Shown: one piece after another, positions 3,039-19,343 of the stretch | How positions within the stretch are numbered: position 1 is the stretch's first letter | Layout of the letters: each line of letters begins with the position of its first letter | Virus record (IMG/VR): IMGVR_UViG_3300036784_000044 | Span: 1-24,378 of that record | DNA: 24,378 nucleotides | Source: a virus | Lineage: Duplodnaviria; Caudoviricetes | Strand: one strand, 5' to 3' | The notes under the pieces: generated by a model | Databases searched by the model: none | What the model was told of the DNA's origin: nothing | What the model saw: the letters and a program-made list of their open reading frames with translations, nothing else | Translations under genes and position numbers: made by a program

Positions 3039-3706
3039 GCTGCCCTCCTGTACCGGCCAGTGCCCGGGATTCCGTAACTCGGCAGCAGGCGGGCGCCGGG
3101 AAAGAGAGCACCCGCCCGGCACCGGCAGTGCGGGTGGACGGCTCCCGGGTACCCGATCAGCGGCATGTGATCAGCGTAGAAGTTCCTGCCATCTGCCTGC
3201 CTGCATTCTGCGCTGGTCCGCGTGTCATGTACAGTGTGCCAGCCCAGAAGAAGGCCGCGTGTCATTGCCTCGTTATCCACCTGGGCGCCTGCCTGGCTGC
3301 GCTGCCAGGTAGCCACCAGGTGCTGGGCGTAGAACCGGCGCTCGCGGTGTATCGCGCTGGCCAGGGCCGAGAGCTGGCTGGTGTTCCTGCTGCGGGCTGC
3401 GGCCAGGTCGGCGCCGATGCGCCTTGCTGCGGTCAGCACGAACGAGGCCCGGCGCTGGAGGTTCAGCCGCTCGGTCGTCATCGTCGCCGGGCCATAGAAC
3501 CCGGTCACGCCCGGCGGGTTGCTGATCGCGATGTCCAGCGCCGCGAGCACGGCCCGGGGCGGGACGCCCGCGAAGTACGCCGTCCCGGCCAGGCCAGCCA
3601 GGGCAGCAGAGGCAGACACGGCAGTGAGGAGCGCGGTGCCGACCGCCGCGACAGCAGCGGCGTCGGCGGCCGGGTTGACCGGCTGCGGCTGCTGCGGAGT
3701 GGTCAT
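3035..3706 (-). CDS. MuF-like minor head (capsid morphogenesis) protein
   Basis: C-terminal WHTVHDTRTSAECRQADG...YPGAVHPHCRC matches the MuF/SPP1 gp7 pattern (W..D.RT...C...G...P..HP.CRC); downstream of the portal. Confidence 0.85.
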   Translation of the reverse strand: MTTPQQPQPVNPAADAAAVAAVGTALLTAVSASAALAGLAGTAYFAGVPPRAVLAALDIAISNPPGVTGFYGPATMTTERLNLQRRASFVLTAARRIGADLAAARSRNTSQLSALASAIHRERRFYAQHLVATWQRSQAGAQVDNEAMTRGLLLGWHTVHDTRTSAECRQADGRNFYADHMPLIGYPGAVHPHCRCRAGALFPGARLLPSYGIPGTGRYRRAA

Positions 3707-4011
3707 GTGCCTTCATCCCTGCCTACGGCCTGTGTGCGCCAGATCATGAACGCCCGCCAGAGGATTACCGCGCCGGTCCCGAAGACGGCTGCCACCTGGA
3801 ACCAGGCCAGGAACGGCCCGTACGGCACGCCGAACATGACGTGCAGCGGGGCGGGTGCCAGGGACACCCAGACGCAGGACTCCAGCAGGACGATGTTCCA
3901 GCCCCAGTCGCTGCGCCACCACGGCCAGATCAGCGAGACGGCCGGGGTGAACAGGAAGCTGATCCAGAACGTCGCTACTGACGCGATTGCCAGCATGGTC
4001 GGGGGCTGCAC
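3703..4011 (-). CDS. 3-TM membrane protein, putative holin, paralog of 4013..4345
   Basis: Three hydrophobic segments; WPWWRSDWGWN motif; ATGA overlap with MuF. The start could be ATG 3996. Confidence 0.6.
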   Translation of the reverse strand: MQPPTMLAIASVATFWISFLFTPAVSLIWPWWRSDWGWNIVLLESCVWVSLAPAPLHVMFGVPYGPFLAWFQVAAVFGTGAVILWRAFMIWRTQAVGRDEGT

Positions 4012-4012
4012 A

Positions 4013-4345
4013 TTAACCGTCCCCTTGCCTATCGCGCTCGGCCCCGGCCTTCTGGTCCCGGTAGATGAGCACTGTGCGCCAGGCGATGACGAACGGGATC
4101 ACGGTGAGGGCGGCTACCTCGACCCACTCCAGGACCAGGCCGGGCTCGATGCCGAACTCCGTCTTGAGGACGGAAGCAAGCAGCGCCAGGGCGAGCATCT
4201 CGGTCTTGATGGCCATGTTCCAGCCCCACATGCTGCGCCACCACGGCCAGAACAGGCGGACGATGGCGGGCCAGGTGAAGCACACCCAGAATGTGACGCC
4301 GATCGCGTACGTAGCCCATTCCCGAAGGAACTGGAGCTGTGTCAT
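4013..4345 (-). CDS. 3-TM membrane protein, putative holin
   Basis: Three hydrophobic segments; WPWWRSMWGWN motif; charged C-terminal tail; ATGA coupling to the upstream gene. Confidence 0.6.
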   Translation of the reverse strand: MTQLQFLREWATYAIGVTFWVCFTWPAIVRLFWPWWRSMWGWNMAIKTEMLALALLASVLKTEFGIEPGLVLEWVEVAALTVIPFVIAWRTVLIYRDQKAGAERDRQGDG

Positions 4346-4818: not shown

Positions 4819-6429
4819 TCATGCCATCCGCCCCGGGGGCGGCACCATCGGCGGCTTAGCGGGCGGGGTAGCCGAGCCGACCGCAGGCGGCCCGGCAGCA
4901 GCGCGAGCACCAGGCGGCGGCGGCCGGAGCCCGGCGCCGCCGTTCTGTGCTGCCGCGTGCTGGGCGATGCCGAACGCTGCGCCGGTCATGCCCTGGAGCG
5001 CCCCGAGGCTGCCCGCTGCCTCCGGCGGCATGCCCGGCGGCGGGTTGCCCGCGAGCTGGTCGGCCCGCTGGCTGGCCGTGGAGATCAGCGCGTTGTGCAC
5101 CTGGTCCACGTCGAGCTGGAGGATCGTCGCCATCCGCTCGGTGATCAGGTCGAACACCGGCAGCGGCACGTGCAGCACAGGAGCGGCGGCCATCTGGCCG
5201 AAGAGAGTCAGCAGCGCCTGGATCTGCTCATCCTGGAGCGGCCCGCACTTGATCTTGGGGAACGCGGCGTCGGACCCGAAGTTCAGGATGACCAGCGGCC
5301 GGGCCACGTCGTGAGAGAGCGACCCGGCTATCTCCTTGGACACGGCCTGGCGTGACTTCAGGTAGAAGCTGCTCTGGTCCTGAGACAGGGCGTAGCTGCC
5401 CTTGCCGCCGGTAGCCGAGCCGGTGAGCGCCATGAACCCGGCCAGCACGCTGTGCGTCTGCCAGCCCTCCAGGAACGACAGCGCGTCCAGGAAGAACTTG
5501 CCGTTGTCGCCGTGCGACTCCAGTACCTCGAACGTCTTGCCGTTGTCCGGCGGTCGCTCCAGGCCGACGACGCCCGAGGACTTCAGGGACGCGATGTTGT
5601 CGGCGCGGTCGTTGGCCTCGTTCTGGTCGTTGCCGTAGACGATGGTCCTGGGCAGCGCCTGGTTCTCCAGGAAGTGGTACCAGAGGTAGAGCAGCTTCAT
5701 CTTGGTCTGGTAGCACCAGTACGACACCTCCATCTCGGAGGTGCCGGTCAGCGGCTCCATGTCCTTGCCGTGCGTATAGATGTAGCTGCGGACCCGGGGG
5801 ATGTCCACGTACCCGGGGACCTTCTGCTTGGACGTCAGCGCCAGGTTGCCGCCGAACAGCCAGACCTGCTGGCGGAAGCCGTTCTGCTCGCCGCTGCGGT
5901 CGTTGTACCGGGCCTGGCAGGTGGCGGGCGGGCGGTAGGCGATCTTGTCATAGATGATCTTGTTGTCGTCTTCGCGGATCTTGTAGACCTTCTCGAAGAA
6001 CGACCGGCGGAAGATCTGCGCCGTGGTGACCTGGCCGATCAGGTCATGCCAAGGCGTCTGCATGCCGCCCTCGCTGTCGGGGGTCATCAGCACCGAGTGG
6101 ACGAACTCTGCCTCGCCCTTGTCGCCCCGGGCTGGCTCTATCGACCAGTCGGCCTCGCGGATCGGCAGGGTGAGCACCAGCTTGATCGCGTTGCAGATGC
6201 CGTCGCGCGAGAACATGACCTTCATGTCCCGCGCGCCCCACTCGCCGTAGTCGAAGACGTCGCCCTCGCCGTAGTAGGCGAACAGCCGCTGGCCCCAGTC
6301 GAACTGGGTGCCGATCTCCTGGCTCATCAGATCGCGCCTGCGGGCGCCGGGAGAGCCGGGAGGTGCCAGGTCGGGGAACTCTACGACGTTGCCGCCGCCG
6401 GAGATCTTGAACCCCTTGCCAGTCGCCAC
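4819..6429 (-). CDS. Portal protein (DUF935/Mu gp29-like)
   Basis: 536 aa between terL and MuF; N-terminal MFSRDGICNAIKLVLTLPIREADWSIEP and C-terminal GSYALSQDQ...ARPLVILNFG..AAFPKI resemble DUF935 portals; CAGGAGGT RBS. Confidence 0.85.
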   Translation of the reverse strand: MATGKGFKISGGGNVVEFPDLAPPGSPGARRRDLMSQEIGTQFDWGQRLFAYYGEGDVFDYGEWGARDMKVMFSRDGICNAIKLVLTLPIREADWSIEPARGDKGEAEFVHSVLMTPDSEGGMQTPWHDLIGQVTTAQIFRRSFFEKVYKIREDDNKIIYDKIAYRPPATCQARYNDRSGEQNGFRQQVWLFGGNLALTSKQKVPGYVDIPRVRSYIYTHGKDMEPLTGTSEMEVSYWCYQTKMKLLYLWYHFLENQALPRTIVYGNDQNEANDRADNIASLKSSGVVGLERPPDNGKTFEVLESHGDNGKFFLDALSFLEGWQTHSVLAGFMALTGSATGGKGSYALSQDQSSFYLKSRQAVSKEIAGSLSHDVARPLVILNFGSDAAFPKIKCGPLQDEQIQALLTLFGQMAAAPVLHVPLPVFDLITERMATILQLDVDQVHNALISTASQRADQLAGNPPPGMPPEAAGSLGALQGMTGAAFGIAQHAAAQNGGAGLRPPPPGARAAAGPPAVGSATPPAKPPMVPPPGRMA

Positions 6430-6941: not shown

Positions 6942-7859
6942 CTACTTGCCGGTGCTGAGCGCCAGGCCGCTGCCCGAGCCGGGGAAGCACTGGAACCCGG
7001 CCGGTAGCTGCCCGGCCTCGGACTTGACGTCGGTCAGGCACTGCGCGACGAGCTGCGCCACGGTGGGCGTGCCCAGCTTGGCGAACGCCGCCGCGTTCTC
7101 GGTGTTGACCTTGACGTTCTCCGTCGCGATGGCGTCGTTGGCGAATGCCTGCTGGATGGCTTGCAGCTTGGCCTCCACCGAGTCGGAGAAGTGCGCGTAC
7201 GGCATGAGCACCGACTTGACCTGGATGTCGGCGCCGATGTCGGTCTCCATCTGTGCCAGGATCTGCGGGCCGAACGACGTGAACTGGCTCGACGCGGTGT
7301 TCGTGCCGGTCACGTTGCTGACGTCGGTGATCGGGTTGTAGTCACCCAGCACCTGGTTGACCACCTGCTTGAACTCGCGCACCACCACGGCGTCGGTGAT
7401 CACGGTCATGAAGTCGCCGTGGTTGGCGTAATTGCTGTACAGCGTGCCCGCTGCTCCCGGCAGGATCTTCCACTGGATCGTGGTGTCCACGCAGGCCGTC
7501 TGCTGGCCGCCGATGCGCACGGTCAGGCAGTTCCTGCCCTCGAAGGTCGTGGTCTGCACGGTCTCGTCCACGTGGACGACGTTCAGCCACGGCTCCCAGG
7601 TCTCGTGCATGCCAGGGCCGAACACGCCCGAGCTGACCGCGCCGAAGGACACCGGCACGCCGATGTTCCTGGTGGGCACCGACTTGACCCCGGCCAGGGC
7701 GAACAGGCCCAGCCCGAGGATGACGCACAGCGCCGCTGCGCTGCCCGATATGCCACGGATGCTGACGCCGCCCTCGGTCTTGCCCGAGACGAACACGGCG
7801 ACGATGGCGAGTATCACCGCCGCCAGCCAGAGCATGATGGCTAGAACGAACCATCCCAT
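6942..7859 (-). CDS. SPFH (band 7/prohibitin) domain membrane protein
   Basis: Start reassigned to ATG 7859 (MGWFVLA). Two N-terminal TMs, then SVPTRNIGVPVSFG...GPGMH..EPW, VDTTIQWKI, IQVKSV...FSDSVEAKL and a coiled coil. Confidence 0.8.
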   Translation of the reverse strand: MGWFVLAIMLWLAAVILAIVAVFVSGKTEGGVSIRGISGSAAALCVILGLGLFALAGVKSVPTRNIGVPVSFGAVSSGVFGPGMHETWEPWLNVVHVDETVQTTTFEGRNCLTVRIGGQQTACVDTTIQWKILPGAAGTLYSNYANHGDFMTVITDAVVVREFKQVVNQVLGDYNPITDVSNVTGTNTASSQFTSFGPQILAQMETDIGADIQVKSVLMPYAHFSDSVEAKLQAIQQAFANDAIATENVKVNTENAAAFAKLGTPTVAQLVAQCLTDVKSEAGQLPAGFQCFPGSGSGLALSTGK

Positions 7860-8095
7860 TTGCGTTGCCTCTCCCTCTCCCTTGCAGCCAGTCGCTCCAG
7901 CTCCGCCGGAGTCTTCGCCTGGCCGAGGTTTGCCAGGTACGCCGTGGTGGCGTCCCGGTCTTCCTGCTCCAGCAGCCCACGAGCACCCTCGCGCACGAGC
8001 CGCTGCTTTCTGCCTTTCACGACGACCACCACGGTGACCACGGCAGCAGCCAGCGTCGCCACGAAGGCGAACAGCAGCAGCAGCAGGTCTGTCAT
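7841..8095 (-). CDS. Single-TM membrane protein, 84 aa
   Basis: AGGGAG RBS 6 nt before ATG 8095; MTDLLLLLFAFVATLAAAVVTVVVVVKGRK. Confidence 0.7.
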   Translation of the reverse strand: MTDLLLLLFAFVATLAAAVVTVVVVVKGRKQRLVREGARGLLEQEDRDATTAYLANLGQAKTPAELERLAARERERQRKWDGSF

Positions 8096-8114
8096 GATCA
8101 TCTCCCTCGTAAGC

Positions 8115-8225
8115 ACGCGGGGCGGCGGGGTTCGAACCCGCGATCTCCGACCCGTACCAGTTCGGTGAACGGAGAGCCCCTGGCTGGGCGCCGCTTGGCC
8201 TCTCCACGGCCCACGCACACCGCGT
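8115..8225 (-). ncRNA. tRNA-like structured RNA A (T arm and acceptor stem, non-canonical core)
   Basis: Fills the gap after the terL stop. T arm GCGGG-TTCGAAC-CCCGC; terminal stem ACGCGGTGTG/CGCCCCGCGT with one mismatch; internal helices TGGGC/GCCCA and TCTCCG/CGGAGA. No standard D arm or 7-nt anticodon loop. Confidence 0.45.
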
Positions 8226-8239
8226 ACTTGGCTACCAGA

Positions 8240-9916
8240 CTACCGCCAGGCGTGCACCGCCGCGCGCTGTCTGCGCGGCCGGTCCTCGTCGTCCGCGCCG
8301 TCCTGCGGGTTGAGGAAGTTGTCGCTGTCTTTCGGTGCGAATCCCTCCAGGTCCCAGTCGCCGCCGGAGACATCGAGCAGCCCGCCGTGCGCGCCCTTGA
8401 GGCGGCGCCGGGACACCGCCTGCGACGGTGAGATGCCGATCGAGTCCAGCTCCTCGGCCGCCGCCCAGCGCCGCACCCCGGCGCGCACCGGGTTCTCCTC
8501 GAACGTGGCGTTGAGGAACGGCGTGCACGCCCAGACCAGGCTGTCCAGCCGGTCGGGGGACCGCTCGTCGGCCGCGCCCGTGAACGTGGCCATCTGGTCC
8601 TCCAGCTCGGCCATCTTCACGATGTCGCGGTGCCAGGTCTTGGCCAGGCTGTCCGGGTCGGTGATCTCGTACGTCTGGCCGTCATAGCAGTGCTTGACCA
8701 CGCCGCGCTCGTACAGCGCCGAGACCGGCTCGGCCCGGGTGCGCTTGCCCTGGTTGCGCCCGGCCCACACCTTTTCCACAGCCGGGATCTGCTCGGCCCT
8801 GATGACCCCGCTCTTGACCAGATCCTTGATCACCTGACGGAACACTGTGACTAGCCACTCGCCGCCGTGGTTCTTCTCCACCACGATCCTGGCGTGCCAC
8901 TGGACCGCCTCCAGCACGACACGCTTGGCGAAGGCCGCAGGAGCCTCCTGGCCGCCCCAGTTCTTGGCGACGTACAGGTAGCCCAGGTGCATGCCCGCGA
9001 TCGTGTACGCCTGCTCGTCGCTGGTCTCCTGGCCGTCTGACGGGTCCACCCCGATGACCGTCCGGGTGAGGAACGGTGGCCCGCCTTCCTGCCCGACCAT
9101 CGGCACCTGGATCTCGTCCAGCAGGTCCCGGGTCCACAGGGCATTGGCCACGTCCTCCAGCAGCTCGCCCTCCAGCTCCTGGCGCTCCAGCCTGGTGCCC
9201 TTGGCTGCACCGACGACTGCCCGGTAGAACGCGCTGGACAGGTTGGCCACGTTGTCGATGGTGCGCAGCTTGCGGACGATGACGCCGCCCTCAGACGGCT
9301 CGTTGCGGATCAGCGAGCGGACCAGGGCGCGAGCCGGGCGCGACGCCTTCGGAGTGCCGGTGGCGATGATGACCGAGGAGCCCATGCGCACCGCGTACCG
9401 CAGCGACTCGTTCCAGGTGGTGTCCCACTTGTCCCAGAGACCCACCTCGTCGCACCAGGCGGCGCGCAGGTTGCGGCCCTGGATGCGCAGCCCTCCCTCA
9501 GCGGCGGAGTCGGCGTAGACCACGATGCCGTTGTGCAGGATCACCTGGCCGTAGGTCCGCCAGGCGCTGCGGACGATCTTGCTCTTGTGGTCCTTGATCT
9601 GGCCCATCGACGTGCCTAGTGCCCTCAGCAGGCCGGACTCGCCCTCCACGCACTTGGTCCAGGCATCGGCGTAGGTAGGCGCGACGATCGCGTACTCGCC
9701 CTCGCCGCTGGTGTCTTCCATCACGAGGTCGGCCAGGCCCTGCGCCCCTGCCCTGGTCTTGCCTGACCCGCGCCCGCCCTGGAGATAGAACACGCGCCAC
9801 TCGCCGGTTCGCTCGGGCAGGATCTGCTCCGGCCGCGCTACCTTCCGCCAGCGCAGCCGTGGGTCCTCCGGCAGGACGTCCAGCCGGGAACCGAACTCCT
9901 CCCAGAGCGTTCTCAC
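8240..9916 (-). CDS. terL: Terminase large subunit
   Basis: RPEQ adenine-binding motif, Walker A GGRGSGKT, VAPTY, Walker B AWCDE, TGTP coupling motif, RQELEGE, nuclease IGVDP, VVEKNHGG, SPDRLDSLVWA. Confidence 0.95.
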   Translation of the reverse strand: MRTLWEEFGSRLDVLPEDPRLRWRKVARPEQILPERTGEWRVFYLQGGRGSGKTRAGAQGLADLVMEDTSGEGEYAIVAPTYADAWTKCVEGESGLLRALGTSMGQIKDHKSKIVRSAWRTYGQVILHNGIVVYADSAAEGGLRIQGRNLRAAWCDEVGLWDKWDTTWNESLRYAVRMGSSVIIATGTPKASRPARALVRSLIRNEPSEGGVIVRKLRTIDNVANLSSAFYRAVVGAAKGTRLERQELEGELLEDVANALWTRDLLDEIQVPMVGQEGGPPFLTRTVIGVDPSDGQETSDEQAYTIAGMHLGYLYVAKNWGGQEAPAAFAKRVVLEAVQWHARIVVEKNHGGEWLVTVFRQVIKDLVKSGVIRAEQIPAVEKVWAGRNQGKRTRAEPVSALYERGVVKHCYDGQTYEITDPDSLAKTWHRDIVKMAELEDQMATFTGAADERSPDRLDSLVWACTPFLNATFEENPVRAGVRRWAAAEELDSIGISPSQAVSRRRLKGAHGGLLDVSGGDWDLEGFAPKDSDNFLNPQDGADDEDRPRRQRAAVHAWR

Positions 9917-10647
9917 CCTGCCAGCTCACCCTGGATGACCCTGATGTTGGCGCGGAAGGCGGTACGCGCGCTGATCTGCCCGTCGAGGCCGACGTGGGAC
10001 GCCTCCAGGGCCATGTTCAGCGCCTGTTCCAGCATCCTGAGCTGCTCTTCGCGGATGCCCTGGAGCCGGTCGTCAATGTTCAGCTTGGAGATGTCGAGCA
10101 GCAGCTTGGCGTACCGCTCCAGGGCGCGCTCGTACAGCAGGATCTCGGCGCGGAACTGCTCACCGGCCTTGCTGTGCGCGTACCGCAGGGTGCCGCGCTG
10201 GACCATCGCGGCCACCGTGTCGCGCAGCATCTCCTTCATCGCCTTGATCTCGGCGGCCAGCTCCAGCAGCTCATCGAGCGGGCTGCCGATGCCAGGGGGA
10301 TTGAGCAGCCTGTCGCCGTGCGCGGCCATGATCTCCTGGAGCGTGGCCGCTGCCCGGTTCTCCACGCCCCTGACCGCCGAGAACTCGCGGGTGATCGAGC
10401 TGCCAGCGCCGTGGACGGTGCACATCGGCGGGATGCTGTCGGACACCGCGTACTTCCGGCAGGCGTCAGGAGCGCCGAACTGGCGGCGGCAGCGCTTCGC
10501 CCCGGTGATGTCCTCGGCCTCTTCCAGGAGATCATCGGGGACGTGCAGGAGGCAGGCCCCGAGGCCGTCCACCTCGTTGTTCTGGCACGGGGCGCCGTTG
10601 ACGGTCTCGCCTCCGCACTTCCTGTCCCCGGAGCCGGGCAGTTTCAC
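9913..10647 (-). CDS. terS: Putative terminase small subunit with two N-terminal CCCH Zn fingers
   Basis: GTGA-coupled directly upstream of terL. C-x9-C-x10-C-x2-H and C-x9-C-x12-C-x2-HG fingers (HGGxSTG-like), then helical EQFRAEILLYERALERYAKLL..ISKLNIDDRL. Confidence 0.65.
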   Translation of the reverse strand: MKLPGSGDRKCGGETVNGAPCQNNEVDGLGACLLHVPDDLLEEAEDITGAKRCRRQFGAPDACRKYAVSDSIPPMCTVHGAGSSITREFSAVRGVENRAAATLQEIMAAHGDRLLNPPGIGSPLDELLELAAEIKAMKEMLRDTVAAMVQRGTLRYAHSKAGEQFRAEILLYERALERYAKLLLDISKLNIDDRLQGIREEQLRMLEQALNMALEASHVGLDGQISARTAFRANIRVIQGELAG

Positions 10648-10937
10648 GTGGAACCTCCGTCATGGTGGCTGACCAGCAGGGCAGTAGTGAAGAACGAGAA
10701 TACCGCCGACCACAGCGGGATCATCAGCACCATCGCGGCCAGGGCCAGTCCGTACTGGAGCCGCCCGTGCAGCGCGATATCGCAGCCGTCCGTGGTCGCC
10801 AGGCCCGCCGTGCAGTAGACGCCGTGGATCGGGCCGGTGCGCGTCACGGTGCCCATCAGCCAGCCGAGCACCACGACCAGGACGACGGTCACGCCGAGCA
10901 GGTACAGCGCCCGGTGGTGGTGCTTGTTCAGTGCCAC
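10644..10937 (-). CDS. Minimal 2TM-1P potassium-channel-like protein, 97 aa, atypical filter
   Basis: GGAGGAG RBS 8 nt before GTG 10937. TM1 - pore helix IHGVYCTAGLATTDGCD - TM2 LALAAMVLMIPLWSAVFSFFT aligns by eye with KcsA ALWWSVETATTVGYGD...VAVVVMVAGITSFGLVTAALAT. Confidence 0.7.
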   Translation of the reverse strand: MALNKHHHRALYLLGVTVVLVVVLGWLMGTVTRTGPIHGVYCTAGLATTDGCDIALHGRLQYGLALAAMVLMIPLWSAVFSFFTTALLVSHHDGGST

Positions 10938-11149
10938 TCGTCGCACTCCTCCAGCTCCTCGATGACCTCGGTCACCGCCTGCCTGACCCGCCAGAACACG
11001 TGCGCGAGCCAGGCACCGGCCAGGGTGTAGGCGATCACCGGGTGCCGCCTGGACAGCTCGGTGACCTTGGGCAGCGGGGTGAAGCAGGCGACGCCCTCCC
11101 ATGCGACGATCGTGATCAGCGCGCTGCCAGCGGCGGTGTCGCGGCTCAC
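10928..11149 (-). CDS. Small 2-TM membrane protein, 73 aa
   Basis: GTGA overlap with the upstream stop; two hydrophobic segments flanking PKVTELSRRHP; acidic tail. Confidence 0.65.
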   Translation of the reverse strand: MSRDTAAGSALITIVAWEGVACFTPLPKVTELSRRHPVIAYTLAGAWLAHVFWRVRQAVTEVIEELEECDEWH

Positions 11150-11529
11150 AGCCGGTCCTTGAGCACGGTGAGGATCTGGTCCAGCAGAATGCCGTTGTCG
11201 ATGATCAGCTCGCTGACCGGCTTCTCCGGCCGGGCCAGGGCGTGGTGGACGTTGCACCACGGCGTGCCGTCCACCCGGTGCCTGCCGAGCCGGTAGCACC
11301 CGGGCTGGTGGCAGTTGTGTCCGTGCCACATGCCGGTGATGATGGTCGCCATGCCGATGCCGGTCAGGATCATCGGGCCGATGCCGGAGGTGAACCCGTA
11401 CTGCGGGGTGACCTGCGACTCGAACCCGGTCAGCCTGCATATCTCGAAGCAGGCGTACCAGAACAGGCAGAACCCGATGAGCGCGGCAGAGAAGATCGCC
11501 GCCGCCTGCCAGAGGCCATTCATGCGCAC
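11146..11529 (-). CDS. 2-TM membrane protein with Cys/His Zn-binding tail
   Basis: Two TMs followed by HNCHQPGCYRLGRHRVDGTPWCNVHH; apparent leaderless GTG start (alternative ATG 11523). Confidence 0.75.
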   Translation of the reverse strand: MRMNGLWQAAAIFSAALIGFCLFWYACFEICRLTGFESQVTPQYGFTSGIGPMILTGIGMATIITGMWHGHNCHQPGCYRLGRHRVDGTPWCNVHHALARPEKPVSELIIDNGILLDQILTVLKDRL

Positions 11530-11541
11530 GGCTCAAGTATG
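11530..11541 (-). promoter_or_regulatory. Candidate -10 element for a leaderless transcript
   Basis: CATACT-N6-GTG(11529); no Shine-Dalgarno upstream. This geometry is typical of actinobacterial leaderless mRNAs. Confidence 0.4.
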
Positions 11542-11543
11542 CA

Positions 11544-11584
11544 GCGAGCCGGGCCTGATCGGGGGGCAACCAGGCCCGGCTCGC
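11544..11584. terminator. 14-bp GC-rich inverted repeat (probable terminator or RNA end)
   Basis: GCGAGCCGGGCCTG-N13-CAGGCCCGGCTCGC in an intergenic gap; no U-tract. Confidence 0.6.
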
Positions 11585-11680
11585 CGGGACGTATGGCTTA
11601 CGGCCTTTGACCGCTCCAGCCGTCCCTCATCGGCAGCAGGGCACCATAGGAGGGGCTGGCCTCCACCCTGGCCGGAAACT

Positions 11681-12097
11681 CTATGCTGGCACGCACTCCA
11701 GCTCTGCGGTGATCCTCTGCGCAATGAACGAGTCGGTGTCGGCCTTCTGCTTGCGCATGAACTCCGCCGCGTCGGCCTCGGGGTCGTAGGCCACCAGGTC
11801 GGTGCCGAAGAAATGCCGGGTGGCCTCGCCCTCTGCTGGCCAGTCCTGCTGCTGCACGTAGCTGGCCAGCTCCGCGTACCGCTCGAACTCCCAGCCGGGC
11901 TCCGGCGGGGTCCAGGACATGCCGTTCCAGGGGGTGTCGCGAAGAGGACGGAGATCCACGAGGGTTTTGTCCCAGTCCACTCGCGCCTGCCGGTCGCGGG
12001 CCTTGTCAACCTGCTCCCAGACGAAGACCGCGACGGCGATGATCCCGAGGAACGCCCCGAAGGCGAGGATTGCGTACCCGATGGCGTGGTGCGTCAT
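11681..12097 (-). CDS. Single-TM membrane protein, 138 aa
   Basis: AGGGAGA RBS and ATG 12097; N-terminal TM IGYAILAFGAFLGIIAVAVFVW. Confidence 0.75.
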   Translation of the reverse strand: MTHHAIGYAILAFGAFLGIIAVAVFVWEQVDKARDRQARVDWDKTLVDLRPLRDTPWNGMSWTPPEPGWEFERYAELASYVQQQDWPAEGEATRHFFGTDLVAYDPEADAAEFMRKQKADTDSFIAQRITAELECVPA

Positions 12098-12107
12098 GAT
12101 CGTCTCC

Positions 12108-12878
12108 CTATGTGACCCGGTAGAACGCGGACGGCGCGTAGCCGCCGCCGTAGGGGTGGTATCCGACGACAGTGCCCGGCGACTGCGCGCCGAACGTCTC
12201 GCCCGCGTGCACGTAGAACTCCACGTGACCCGAGCCGAAGAACGCCAGGTCCCCGTAGGACGGTTCGGAGACCTGGACAAGCAGCCCGGAGCTGACGCCC
12301 TGGGCGAGCATCGAGTACGTGTCGCGGGGCATTGAGCTGATCCCGAGCTGGAGTGCTGCCCAGTAGACCAGGCCAGAGCAGTCAAACCCGCCAGGGGTGT
12401 CGCCGCCGTAGACGTAGGGCACGCCCTGCATCGAGAGGGCCTTGTTGAGCAGCTCCGCTCCGGCCCCGCTGCCAGGCCCTGCTTGCGGGCTGGCCGTGAC
12501 AGTGCTTGCAGTGGGCTCCGGGGCCGGAGCAGATGTCTGGACCGGCGCCGTCGCAGTGCTTGGGAGCGTCGTTGCCGATGGCGTCGGCGCCGGAGTCGTG
12601 GGGGTGGCCGCCGCAGCAACGACGGCCATGTGGTGCTGGTGCGCCGCGTGCGTGCTGGTCACGGCAAGCACCGGATGCGGGCGCGGCTCGCCGTAGCCGA
12701 CCGGCAGCGACGGGGCGGAATCCGTCACTGCCGGAGTCGTCGGCGCCGTCACCGGCAGGCTGATGGCCGCCGCTGCCGCCGGAGCCGGGCCGGACGGCAG
12801 CCCGGCGTACGCGGCGCCCGTGATCATGCACGCGCACGACACGCAGGCCAGGGCCAGCGCCCGGCGGCTAGCAGCCAT
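12108..12878 (-). CDS. Secreted NlpC/P60 (C40) peptidoglycan endopeptidase
   Basis: Signal peptide, Pro/Thr/Ala linker, then QGVPYVYGG...GFDCSGLV, MPRDT, GDLAFF, GHVEFY (catalytic Cys and His present). Confidence 0.92.
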   Translation of the reverse strand: MAASRRALALACVSCACMITGAAYAGLPSGPAPAAAAAISLPVTAPTTPAVTDSAPSLPVGYGEPRPHPVLAVTSTHAAHQHHMAVVAAAATPTTPAPTPSATTLPSTATAPVQTSAPAPEPTASTVTASPQAGPGSGAGAELLNKALSMQGVPYVYGGDTPGGFDCSGLVYWAALQLGISSMPRDTYSMLAQGVSSGLLVQVSEPSYGDLAFFGSGHVEFYVHAGETFGAQSPGTVVGYHPYGGGYAPSAFYRVT

Positions 12879-13506
12879 CGTAGGGCGCCCAGTCGCTGTA
12901 CCCGCGCGCAGCGACCGCGTTGTAGAAGACCTGCGTCTGCTCAGCCGCCGAGGCGTTGCCGAAGTCGGCCGGGTTGCCTCCTGACGCGGCCCAGGTGCCA
13001 GCGCTGAACTGGTAGAGGCCGTAGTGCCCGCTGGCGTTCCAGATGTTCACCTGACCGCCGCTCTCCCGGCTGATGATGCACTGCTGCATTGCGCCGGAGC
13101 CGGTGTACGTCACGGCGACGGGGGCCGGGGCGGGAGCACTTCCAACAGAAGGCCCGCTCTGGTTGGAAGTTGGCTGCGAACTTCCAACTCCGCTTGACCC
13201 CAGGGCCAGGAGCTGCTTCGGGTCGTCGCACTTGATGGCCAGCTTCTGGCCAGGCAGGATCAGATTCGGGTTCGCGCCGATCGTCGCGCGGTTCGCCTGG
13301 TAAATGCCGGTCCAGTCGTTGACCTGGCCGTGGCAGTACTGCGCGGCCAGGCCGGACAGCGTGTTGCCGGGGTGAACGGTCACCACCAGGCCGGTGACGA
13401 TGGCCGGAACCGCGAGAGCCGCGAAGAGCGCACCGCGATGGCGGGGCGTGCTGCGGGCTACGTACTGGTCAAAAAGACGGTCCAGAGTGCTGCGCAGGGC
13501 GCCCAT
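12868..13506 (-). CDS. LysM + Rpf-like lytic transglycosylase
   Basis: Signal/TM segment; LysM VTVHPGNTLSGLA...IYQANRATIGANPNLILPGQKL; catalytic domain CIISRESGG...YGLYQF...TW...ASAAEQ...GYSDW. Confidence 0.9.
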   Translation of the reverse strand: MGALRSTLDRLFDQYVARSTPRHRGALFAALAVPAIVTGLVVTVHPGNTLSGLAAQYCHGQVNDWTGIYQANRATIGANPNLILPGQKLAIKCDDPKQLLALGSSGVGSSQPTSNQSGPSVGSAPAPAPVAVTYTGSGAMQQCIISRESGGQVNIWNASGHYGLYQFSAGTWAASGGNPADFGNASAAEQTQVFYNAVAARGYSDWAPYDGC

Positions 13507-18874: not shown

Positions 18875-19122
18875 GGCTTCGGCTCCGAGGTGACTATGCC
18901 GGAGCTGTACGTGCCAGGGGGCGGGGGCGTGAGGCTCGGCGGGTTGACGGTCATCTTGTACATCGGCGGCGAGGTCGGCACGACCTGGAAGCCGAGGATG
19001 CCGAGTGTCAGGACCGCGATGGCGATCCAGTGCACCTCCGGGTAGTACTGCTGGGTGGCGATCAGGACGGCCAGGGCGGCTGTCCCCAGGTGGCGGACCA
19101 CTGCCCACCGGCCGGGGCTCAC
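18871..19122 (-). CDS. 2-TM membrane protein with Pro-rich tail
   Basis: Two short hydrophobic helices; coupled at both ends. Confidence 0.65.
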   Translation of the reverse strand: MSPGRWAVVRHLGTAALAVLIATQQYYPEVHWIAIAVLTLGILGFQVVPTSPPMYKMTVNPPSLTPPPPGTYSSGIVTSEPKP

Positions 19123-19343
19123 GGCCGGGCCTCATTGCACGCGATGGCCGCGTTAGCCCACATCACGGCCTCACGGACCTTCGTCAGCGCCTGCTCCTTC
19201 TCCGGGCTGTCCGGGGCCAGCTCCTCGATGACGGAGACGAACATGCCGCCCCGCTGCCGGATCTCCTGGTACCTCTCGGCCTGGTCCCTGATGGGCGGGT
19301 GGTACGTAAACCAGTTGTCCAGGCGGCTCTCGTCTAGTGCCAT
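19119..19343 (-). CDS. Acb2/Tad1-like helical-hairpin protein (candidate nucleotide-signal sponge)
   Basis: WFTYHPP...QAERYQEIR...IEELAPDSPEKEQALTKVREAVMWANAAIACN. The SxEKxxAxTxxxEAxMW hairpin resembles the C-terminal hairpin of Tad1 as I recall it. Confidence 0.6.
   Translation of the reverse strand: MALDESRLDNWFTYHPPIRDQAERYQEIRQRGGMFVSVIEELAPDSPEKEQALTKVREAVMWANAAIACNEARP

Follow-up and report, generated by a model that had tools for sequence, protein, structure and literature searches.

The virus record IMGVR_UViG_3300036784_000044, from a soil phage and analysed here as a window of 24,378 nucleotides (~68% G+C, an estimated 29% complete, with all convincing genes on the minus strand), encodes a 97-residue pore-loop channel protein, P0001 (10644..10937, minus strand), in which the selectivity filter of K+ channels has been shortened and rewritten. 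P0001 is almost certainly a member of the K+ channel pore-module superfamily, and it descends from, and probably works like, the two-transmembrane K+ channels of the KcsA/NaK kind. The favoured reading, given a probability of about 0.45, is that the channel is a non-selective cation pore acting as a depolarising, pinholin-like lysis trigger; this reading is carried by the filter, by a pair of cysteines that accompanies it through a large phage family, and by the recurrent position of the gene beside a partner gene and near genes for wall hydrolases.

The gene starts with GTG, GGAGGAG lies ~10 nucleotides upstream of this start, and at the other end a 4-nucleotide overlap joins its stop to the GTG of the gene that follows. 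The original prediction, made from the sequence alone, held that a 97-residue protein was hidden within a longer spurious open reading frame (ORF), and this is confirmed by translation and by the G+C content at third codon positions (GC3), which is 0.90 within 10644–10937 vs 0.45 in the upstream extension 10938–11102. The ORF that begins with ATG, 10644–11102 (152 residues), is judged spurious in its 5′ part because of this contrast and because the extension overlaps a real gene of 73 residues (10928–11149, GC3 0.95); relatives start at the same place as the channel, with [M/V]ALNxHHH. Between the channel and its closest relative, the ratio of nonsynonymous to synonymous substitution rates (dN/dS) is 0.41 over 94 codons. 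That P0001, taken alone, matches no family could be read as the mark of a chance ORF or a decaying gene, but GC3, dN/dS, 459 relatives, conserved synteny and a confident fold already refute this explanation, which retains a negligible probability.

The family of P0001 was assembled in steps: the first homologue search yielded five relatives with 49–78% identity, a profile made from those led to 32 proteins, and a wider family profile matched 459 proteins at E ≤ 0.001 among 7100 candidates, the best 120 of which were listed. The connection with K+ channels runs through members that keep a canonical filter. The relative at locus L011, which is syntenic and has the filter TSVGYGD, matches PF07885 (Ion_trans_2) with E 3.4e-11 and 43.3 bits, vs a curated cut-off of 22.5 bits; BLASTP aligns P0001 to it with 38 identities in 94 positions (40%, E 7e-19), and the sole gap, of one residue, falls right after the filter Cys. 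Five of the first 32 relatives match PF07885 at E ≤ 1, and P0029 alone among them exceeds the cut-off, with 25.7 bits. Compared with PDB sequences, the family profile matches NaK C-DI F92A (E 6.7e-6), NaK C-DI (E 1.1e-5) and the KvLm pore (E 6e-3), and the 38 distinct PDB sequences found at E ≤ 1 are nearly all pore-loop channels. When P0001 is combined with 20 relatives carrying GYGD, the resulting profile matches, at E ≤ 0.01, 234 distinct PDB sequences; all of the 60 shown are K+ channels, although canonical members dominate this profile and it speaks mainly for those.

AlphaFold2, with a 32-row alignment, gave P0001 a mean predicted local distance difference test score (pLDDT) of 87.2 and a predicted template-modelling score (pTM) of 0.73; a first transmembrane helix (TM1) spans residues 5–32, the pore helix 36–48, a loop 49–58 and the second transmembrane helix (TM2) 59–92, the whole 97 residues making up one pore module. 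The Foldseek rows shown are all pore-loop cation channels (NaK mutants, KcsA, MthK, a Kv pore module and AMPA receptor transmembrane domains), with template-modelling scores of ~0.44–0.71, at least 0.6 for the rows of two-transmembrane channels, and with NaK C-DI on top. VIA-align, which is independent of Foldseek and covered 48,161 chains, returned tetrameric cation channels in all of its top 30 rows, led by KcsA (2h8p_C; Z 10.4, root-mean-square deviation 2.3, 93 residues aligned), NaK (2q67_A; Z 10.3, 3.4, 89 residues) and the KvLm pore (4h33_A; Z 9.6, 1.9, 88 residues).

Several results must be held against this assignment. P0001 alone matched 0 Pfam families at E ≤ 10, nor did it match NCBIfam; among the PHROGs it found only a stray match to phrog_16562, a family of unknown function (E 0.37), and no channel model; and the cut-off of PF07885 was reached by relatives only. 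Foldseek vs PDB gave no match at E ≤ 0.001, the best being 0.028, and the VIA-align Z of 10.4 is under the tool's caution line of ~13, below which generic helical arrangements are possible. The fold is therefore assigned from the uniform list of matches and the sequence link, not from the Z value alone. Taken together, the relative that matches PF07885, the AlphaFold2 model and the structural matches bear out the original prediction of a TM1–pore helix–TM2 protein of the K+ channel superfamily; its search with the Ion_trans_2 model succeeded for the L011 protein and P0029 and failed for P0001 itself. P0001 is predicted to assemble as a tetramer around a central pore, and a four-copy complex prediction (score 0.21, mark 0.42) speaks neither for nor against such a tetramer.

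The filter of P0001, residues 48–53 of the minus-strand translation, reads TTDGCD (10779..10796), exactly as had been predicted, and is one residue shorter than T-x-G-Y-G-D; all three changes named by the original prediction (Val replaced by Asp, Tyr replaced by Cys, and a residue deleted) are visible in the BLASTP alignment to the canonical L011 relative. The predicted pore helix (residues 36–48, 10794..10832, minus strand) contains H38 and Y41-C42, and C42 is the partner of the filter cysteine C52. For a comparison of filters, 127 family proteins were aligned (130 collected minus three unrelated window proteins). A pore-helix Cys together with G-C-[D/P/S/Y] and no extra residue occurs in 101 of the 127; a pore-helix Phe or Trp goes with GYGD in 20, which are also the members that keep the signature T-[VI]-G-[YF]-G-D lost in P0001; a pore-helix Tyr goes with GAD in four and with GNS in two; and one Cys without the other occurs in none. 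The two cysteines thus belong together, as the original prediction had proposed, and the search for homologues of the YC...TTxGCD type shows the two-Cys filter to be a trait of a large family and not peculiar to this copy; the thought that all homologues might carry GYG, leaving this one a decaying singleton, falls with these counts. A tree from which the trait columns were left out requires two changes for the two-Cys state and is compatible with one origin; the pairing therefore probably arose in a single old event and was retained afterwards, and does not reflect repeated co-evolution; the two-Cys state with its one-residue deletion probably had a single origin.

Position 50, where P0001 has Asp, varies much more: two-Cys members have V (53), D (32), A (9), E (4), N (2) or L (1), the tree requires at least 13 changes, and the residue tracks position 46 in the combinations T-V (50), L-D (23), F-A (8) and F-D (6). 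Asp50 is therefore one common state of a labile site. One homologue (L015:4947–5630) seems to be without TM1 and to run into a 227-residue protein with a long low-complexity tail and the filter TTVGCDP; a gene fusion, an error in the called start or degradation of the copy could account for this.

In KcsA, the contact made by Y78 is with the neighbouring subunit. W67, W68 and Y78 of that channel have been described as forming an aromatic belt around the filter (PMC6328603; PMC6470172). By alignment to canonical relatives, the two cysteines of the phage family occupy the positions of W68 and Y78. They are accompanied by His38, four residues before the first Cys; 97 of the 101 two-Cys members have this His, and none of the 26 others does. 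A cluster of His38, Cys42 and Cys52, perhaps with Asp53, may lie behind the filter and form a disulfide or a metal site in place of the aromatic cuff. The original prediction had thought of a disulfide; since His38 co-occurs with the Cys pair and Asp53 adjoins Cys52, a metal site would be an equal candidate.

The functional meaning of such a filter can be approached through an engineered channel. It has been reported that NaK C-DI (PDB 7OOR, 7PA0) was made by grafting TTVGCDI into NaK to mimic AMPA receptors; that its filter is one residue shorter and straightened, with the TTV part unchanged and forming the narrowest point; that K+, Rb+ and Cs+ occupy S3 and S4 below a wide upper vestibule; that single-channel conductance is ~66 pS vs ~35 pS for wild-type NaK; and that the TTVGCDI filter is non-selective among monovalent cations (bioRxiv 10.1101/2022.08.08.502946). 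TTVGCDI is identical to the filter of many phage relatives (P0019, P0029, P0032 and others), and since NaK C-DI behaves in this way, a conducting pore without K+ selectivity is expected for them; the expectation does not cover Asp50, at which NaK C-DI has Val. By this analogy, P0001 itself probably conducts cations without K+ selectivity, at somewhat better than even odds. The opposite possibility is that the protein does not conduct, being either an antiholin or scaffold for its partner as the real holin or a dominant-negative subunit, as the original prediction had also considered, here one that poisons host KcsA-type channels. The invariable pairing with the partner, the two-transmembrane, N-in/C-in layout of that partner, which is common among holins, and the unusual Asp in the P0001 filter would suit this explanation; it is nevertheless rather improbable, as the identical TTVGCDI filter conducts in NaK and as filter T48, T49, G51 and D53, the pore helix and the P74-L75 motif of TM2 are near-invariant across the 127 proteins, as expected of a working pore.

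Transcription here runs from high to low window coordinates, and the genes around the channel, all on the minus strand, are given in that order. A cell-wall hydrolase with LysM and transglycosylase-like (PF06737) domains comes first (12868..13506; Pfam); it has an N-terminal transmembrane segment with a hydropathy of 2.38 at residues 26–44. It is followed by an NlpC/P60 cell-wall endopeptidase (12108..12878; PF00877, E 4.2e-14) with a signal-like N-terminal segment (hydropathy 1.85 at residues 7–25); we take this pair to resemble the actinobacterial RipA/Rpf cell-separation enzymes more than cytoplasmic phage endolysins. A 138-residue protein with one N-terminal transmembrane segment (11681..12097; hydropathy 2.6 at residues 9–27) has homologues at L002, L005 and L007. 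Then a gap of 151 nucleotides (11530–11680) separates the hydrolase block from the partner gene and contains a 19-bp GC-rich hairpin without a U tail (11543..11585); the 166 nucleotides of 11525–11690 fold with -91.4 kcal/mol (z -4.3), and 0 of 200 shuffled sequences were as stable. The hairpin is possibly a terminator, an attenuator or a processing site before the block of partner, channel and terminase. A scan for sigma-70 promoters detected none in 9500–13000, and its single minus-strand terminator-like match falls inside the channel gene (10703–10718); a search of the window for repeats did not bring up any shared promoter-like motif either. Among sequencing runs, this DNA was listed in four soil-metagenome DNA sets and in no RNA set.

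The partner gene (11146..11529) encodes 127 residues with two transmembrane segments, a Cys3-His hairpin and a C-terminal helix (AlphaFold2 pLDDT 78.7), and its residues C73, C78, C92 and H95 are invariant; it has no match among the family models searched (Pfam, PHROG, NCBIfam), and Foldseek gave only insignificant zinc-finger rows (E ≥ 3). The 73-residue ORF mentioned above lies between partner and channel, overlaps both and has homologues only in L002 and L004. Below the channel, a 244-residue gene in the small-terminase position (9913..10647) overlaps the channel stop and the start of the large subunit gene, and is syntenic in seven loci; the terminase large subunit (8240..9916) is recognised by Terminase_6N (E 7.7e-11), PHROG 38 and PHROG 2. 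Between the partner and the terminase, all junctions are overlaps of 4 to 10 nucleotides, which indicates a closely coupled unit whose expression goes together with that of the packaging genes.

The arrangement was compared in 15 loci on viral contigs (L001–L015), L001 being the same phage as the window. A homologue of the partner lies directly upstream of the channel in all 12 loci that have upstream DNA, L001, L013 and L014 having none to inspect. The 244-residue gene and the terminase follow the channel in L001, L002, L003, L005, L006, L007 and L012, and a different terminase lies just downstream in L008. The LysM-transglycosylase gene is found upstream in L002, L003, L005, L006 and L007, and NlpC/P60 in L002 and L005. 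In L009, from an unrelated phage of 56% G+C, a tail fibre gene is followed by two small genes, the partner, the channel and an endolysin (matching PHROG 291, 3084 and 6219), after which comes a convergent DNA polymerase; this layout is the textbook end-of-late-operon lysis position. With the window included, a wall hydrolase lies within ~3 kb of the channel in seven of the ten loci with enough flank, in two independent architectures.

Depolarisation could also serve other ends. Loss of membrane potential can hinder DNA entry by other phages, and the original prediction had offered exclusion as an alternative to lysis timing. A depolarising pore for superinfection exclusion or early host takeover is, however, quite improbable: the channel gene overlaps packaging genes and comes after the wall hydrolases, no PADLOC model matches, whether for the channel, the partner, the neighbours or the relatives, and the family was not found as a prophage gene, the usual place of exclusion genes, in 185,579 prokaryote species, each represented by a single genome. 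The gene context favours lysis timing over exclusion. As no relative turned up in those genomes, the family looks confined to phages; megablast of 8000–13000 and tblastn of the protein likewise gave no match in GenBank phage records, where no cultured carrier was found. An Atlas search led to unnamed clusters, mostly of Actinomycetota and viruses, and from these taxa and the source names we infer that the hosts are Actinomycetota.

A further explanation leaves the channel conducting and assigns it to host physiology, as an auxiliary gene that maintains K+ or turgor and a favourable cytoplasm late in infection and has no part in lysis. In its favour, the gene pair also harbours relatives with a canonical K+ filter, the label of PHROG 14690, a family matched by relatives, is that of a K+ transporter, and the neighbours in L004 and L010 are methyltransferases and sugar-modifying enzymes, not lysis genes. 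Set against these points, 101 of the 127 members have given up the K+-selective filter, a filter of the NaK C-DI kind is not K+-selective, and the gene pair adjoins wall hydrolases in two architectures; this explanation is accordingly held to be unlikely. In L004, the gene right after the channel (L004:5375–5815) matches PHROG 4786, 'cysteine dioxygenase', with E 1.7e-28, an oddity beside a channel marked by a Cys pair, though perhaps a coincidence.

In Gram-positive bacteria, wall hydrolases become active when the membrane potential is lost, and it is in this way that pinholins work. On the preferred reading, a pinholin-like trigger, the shortened filter of the phage channel would keep the two lower ion sites and open a wide outer vestibule, as in NaK C-DI. 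Late in infection, the tetrameric cation pore would open and the membrane potential run down; the lost potential would then release or activate the two signal-bearing wall hydrolases, and the channel would in this way serve as a pinholin-like lysis clock, probably in concert with its partner. The loss of GYG in four fifths of the family would become explicable in these terms, because a K+-selective pore would clamp the membrane near the K+ equilibrium potential and a non-selective one would depolarise it. The invariant histidines at the cytoplasmic ends of the transmembrane helices (H6/H7 and H91) may serve as a gate sensor. Considered by itself, the role of the channel as a lysis trigger is tentative, at a little under even odds.

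A number of observations tell against this reading. In L004, L010 and L011, none of the ORFs scanned could be recognised as a wall hydrolase, and the neighbours there are methyltransferases, sugar enzymes, a head-tail adaptor and an RNA ligase. The link with lysis rests on two independent architectures, because the six terminase-syntenic loci with hydrolases represent one phage lineage. A canonical GYGD relative is found in the same gene pair (L011); loss of the filter is thus not obligatory, and the role does not strictly need non-selectivity. The strong hairpin at 11543–11585 parts the hydrolase genes from the partner–channel block. The window has other holin candidates, namely the partner, the 73-residue and 138-residue membrane proteins and two tandem paralogous genes of PF23778, 'Putative phage holin family 2' (3703–4011 and 4013–4345, minus strand); the latter share an 80-nucleotide direct repeat with 74% identity, score 32.6 bits (cut-off 32) in one case and 23.2 bits in the other, and are placed at a distance from the hydrolases, with the portal region on one side and a Mu F-like gene on the other. 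Asp at filter position 50 could narrow or block the pore.

The fullest version of the scenario is that soil actinobacterial phages turned a KcsA-like channel into a lysis clock, in which a one-residue filter deletion ended K+ selectivity, a Cys-Cys-His cluster between subunits, as a disulfide or a metal site, replaced the cuff, a dedicated zinc-finger partner gates or times the pore, and opening of the pore collapses the membrane potential and unleashes secreted Rpf-like and RipA-like hydrolases; as a whole this version is less likely than not, if still a serious candidate. If it is true, this would be the first holin-type function built on a tetrameric pore-loop channel, the CDI filter of AMPA receptors would have its counterpart in nature, and the phage channel would add a new class of lysis-timing proteins, derived from a true ion channel, in high-GC soil phages, whose holins are poorly understood. 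Partner and channel together form a defined two-gene module. The family would also be a natural, small and easily expressed system in which to see a K+ filter turn non-selective; it combines the upper filter as grafted into NaK with an unstudied Cys/His cluster at the site of the aromatic cuff.

Conservation is not limited to the filter. The N-terminal motif N-x-H-H-[KR]-R-A has H6 in 121 and H7 in 123 of the 127 proteins; G25 and P74 are invariant, L75 is present in 122, and T84 is nearly invariant; at the cytoplasmic end of TM2, H91 occurs in 126 and D93 in 108. The proton sensor of KcsA has been described as H25 together with E118 (PMC3840921), and the histidines at both cytoplasmic helix ends recall it, the resemblance being one of position only. 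A residue-level match of H91 and D93 to that sensor was dropped, and only the positional resemblance, which the range ends of the structural alignment support, is claimed, because the range ends of the sequence-profile and structural alignments disagree on the register of TM2 by ~4 residues. In the middle of TM1, column 21 is Asp in 82 of the 101 two-Cys members and in 20 of the 26 others, and Val in P0001 (residue 21, window 10875–10877) and its near relatives; the buried acidic residue of most relatives is puzzling in a pore module.

Further features of the window lie outside the channel unit. An SPFH/Band 7 membrane protein of 421 residues (6942–8207, minus strand; Pfam E 4.5e-10; PHROG 200, 'lipoprotein') stands between the large terminase and a Mu-type portal (4819–6429, minus strand), where a membrane scaffold protein is hardly expected; known partners of SPFH proteins include membrane proteases and channels. 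A 74-residue protein with the Acb2/Tad1 hairpin domain (19119–19343, minus strand; Pfam E 1.6e-17) is likely an anti-defence sponge for cyclic-nucleotide signals.

In the literature searched, which did not cover subscription journals, no natural TTVGCD-type filter, Cys/His cluster or channel-derived holin was described, nor was the pairing of a channel with a zinc-finger membrane protein in a lysis-adjacent position; the motif TTVGCD occurred there only in the paper on engineered NaK, the other matches being unrelated strings. Phage-encoded relatives of K+ channels are already catalogued, as PHROGs hold small channel-like families: PHROG 14690 ('cAMP-dependent Kef-type K+ transporter') and PHROG 7872 match the relatives at L011 (1.8e-12) and L012 (1.6e-9) and P0029 (9e-9). 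P0001 does not match these two, their labels are annotation only, and they do not record the subfamily with the GC-D filter or the gene pairing.

Among systems of known function, the analogue is the pinholin with a signal-anchored endolysin, of the phage 21 type. Pinholins form heptameric pinholes by another mechanism, depolarising the membrane rather than making large holes. They share with the phage channel the plan of a small two-transmembrane protein beside secreted or tethered wall hydrolases; there is no homology between them, and the role proposed for the phage channel derives from its gene context. The Kcv channels come from eukaryotic giant viruses, have a canonical K+ filter and act from the virion membrane at entry. 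The phage channel is like them in being encoded by a virus and in consisting, with its 97 residues, of a pore module and no sensor domain. In the cited account of Kcv of chloroviruses, such virus-encoded pore modules have fewer than ~100 residues and no sensor domains, and its full text contains 0 occurrences of phage, bacteriophage, prokaryotic virus or metagenom (PMC12332018). With KcsA and the prokaryotic two-transmembrane K+ channels of PF07885, the phage channel shares the order TM1, pore helix, filter loop and TM2; unlike KcsA, it has a filter one residue shorter with Cys for Tyr, a Cys in place of the pore-helix aromatic residue and no C-terminal cytoplasmic bundle, and it is phage-encoded and paired with a zinc-finger-like membrane protein. 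The AMPA receptor pore (filter QQ...CDI), also seen among the fold matches, has in common with the TTVGCDI relatives the upper filter G-C-D-I and probably non-selective cation conduction, but differs in a lower filter of QQ instead of TT, in an inverted membrane orientation, in its large ligand-binding domains and in one additional helix; the two are related at superfamily level only. The experimental counterpart is NaK C-DI, the best PDB match of the family both by sequence profile and by Foldseek, which differs in being man-made, in having Phe where the phage family has the pore-helix Cys, and in having no His four residues earlier.

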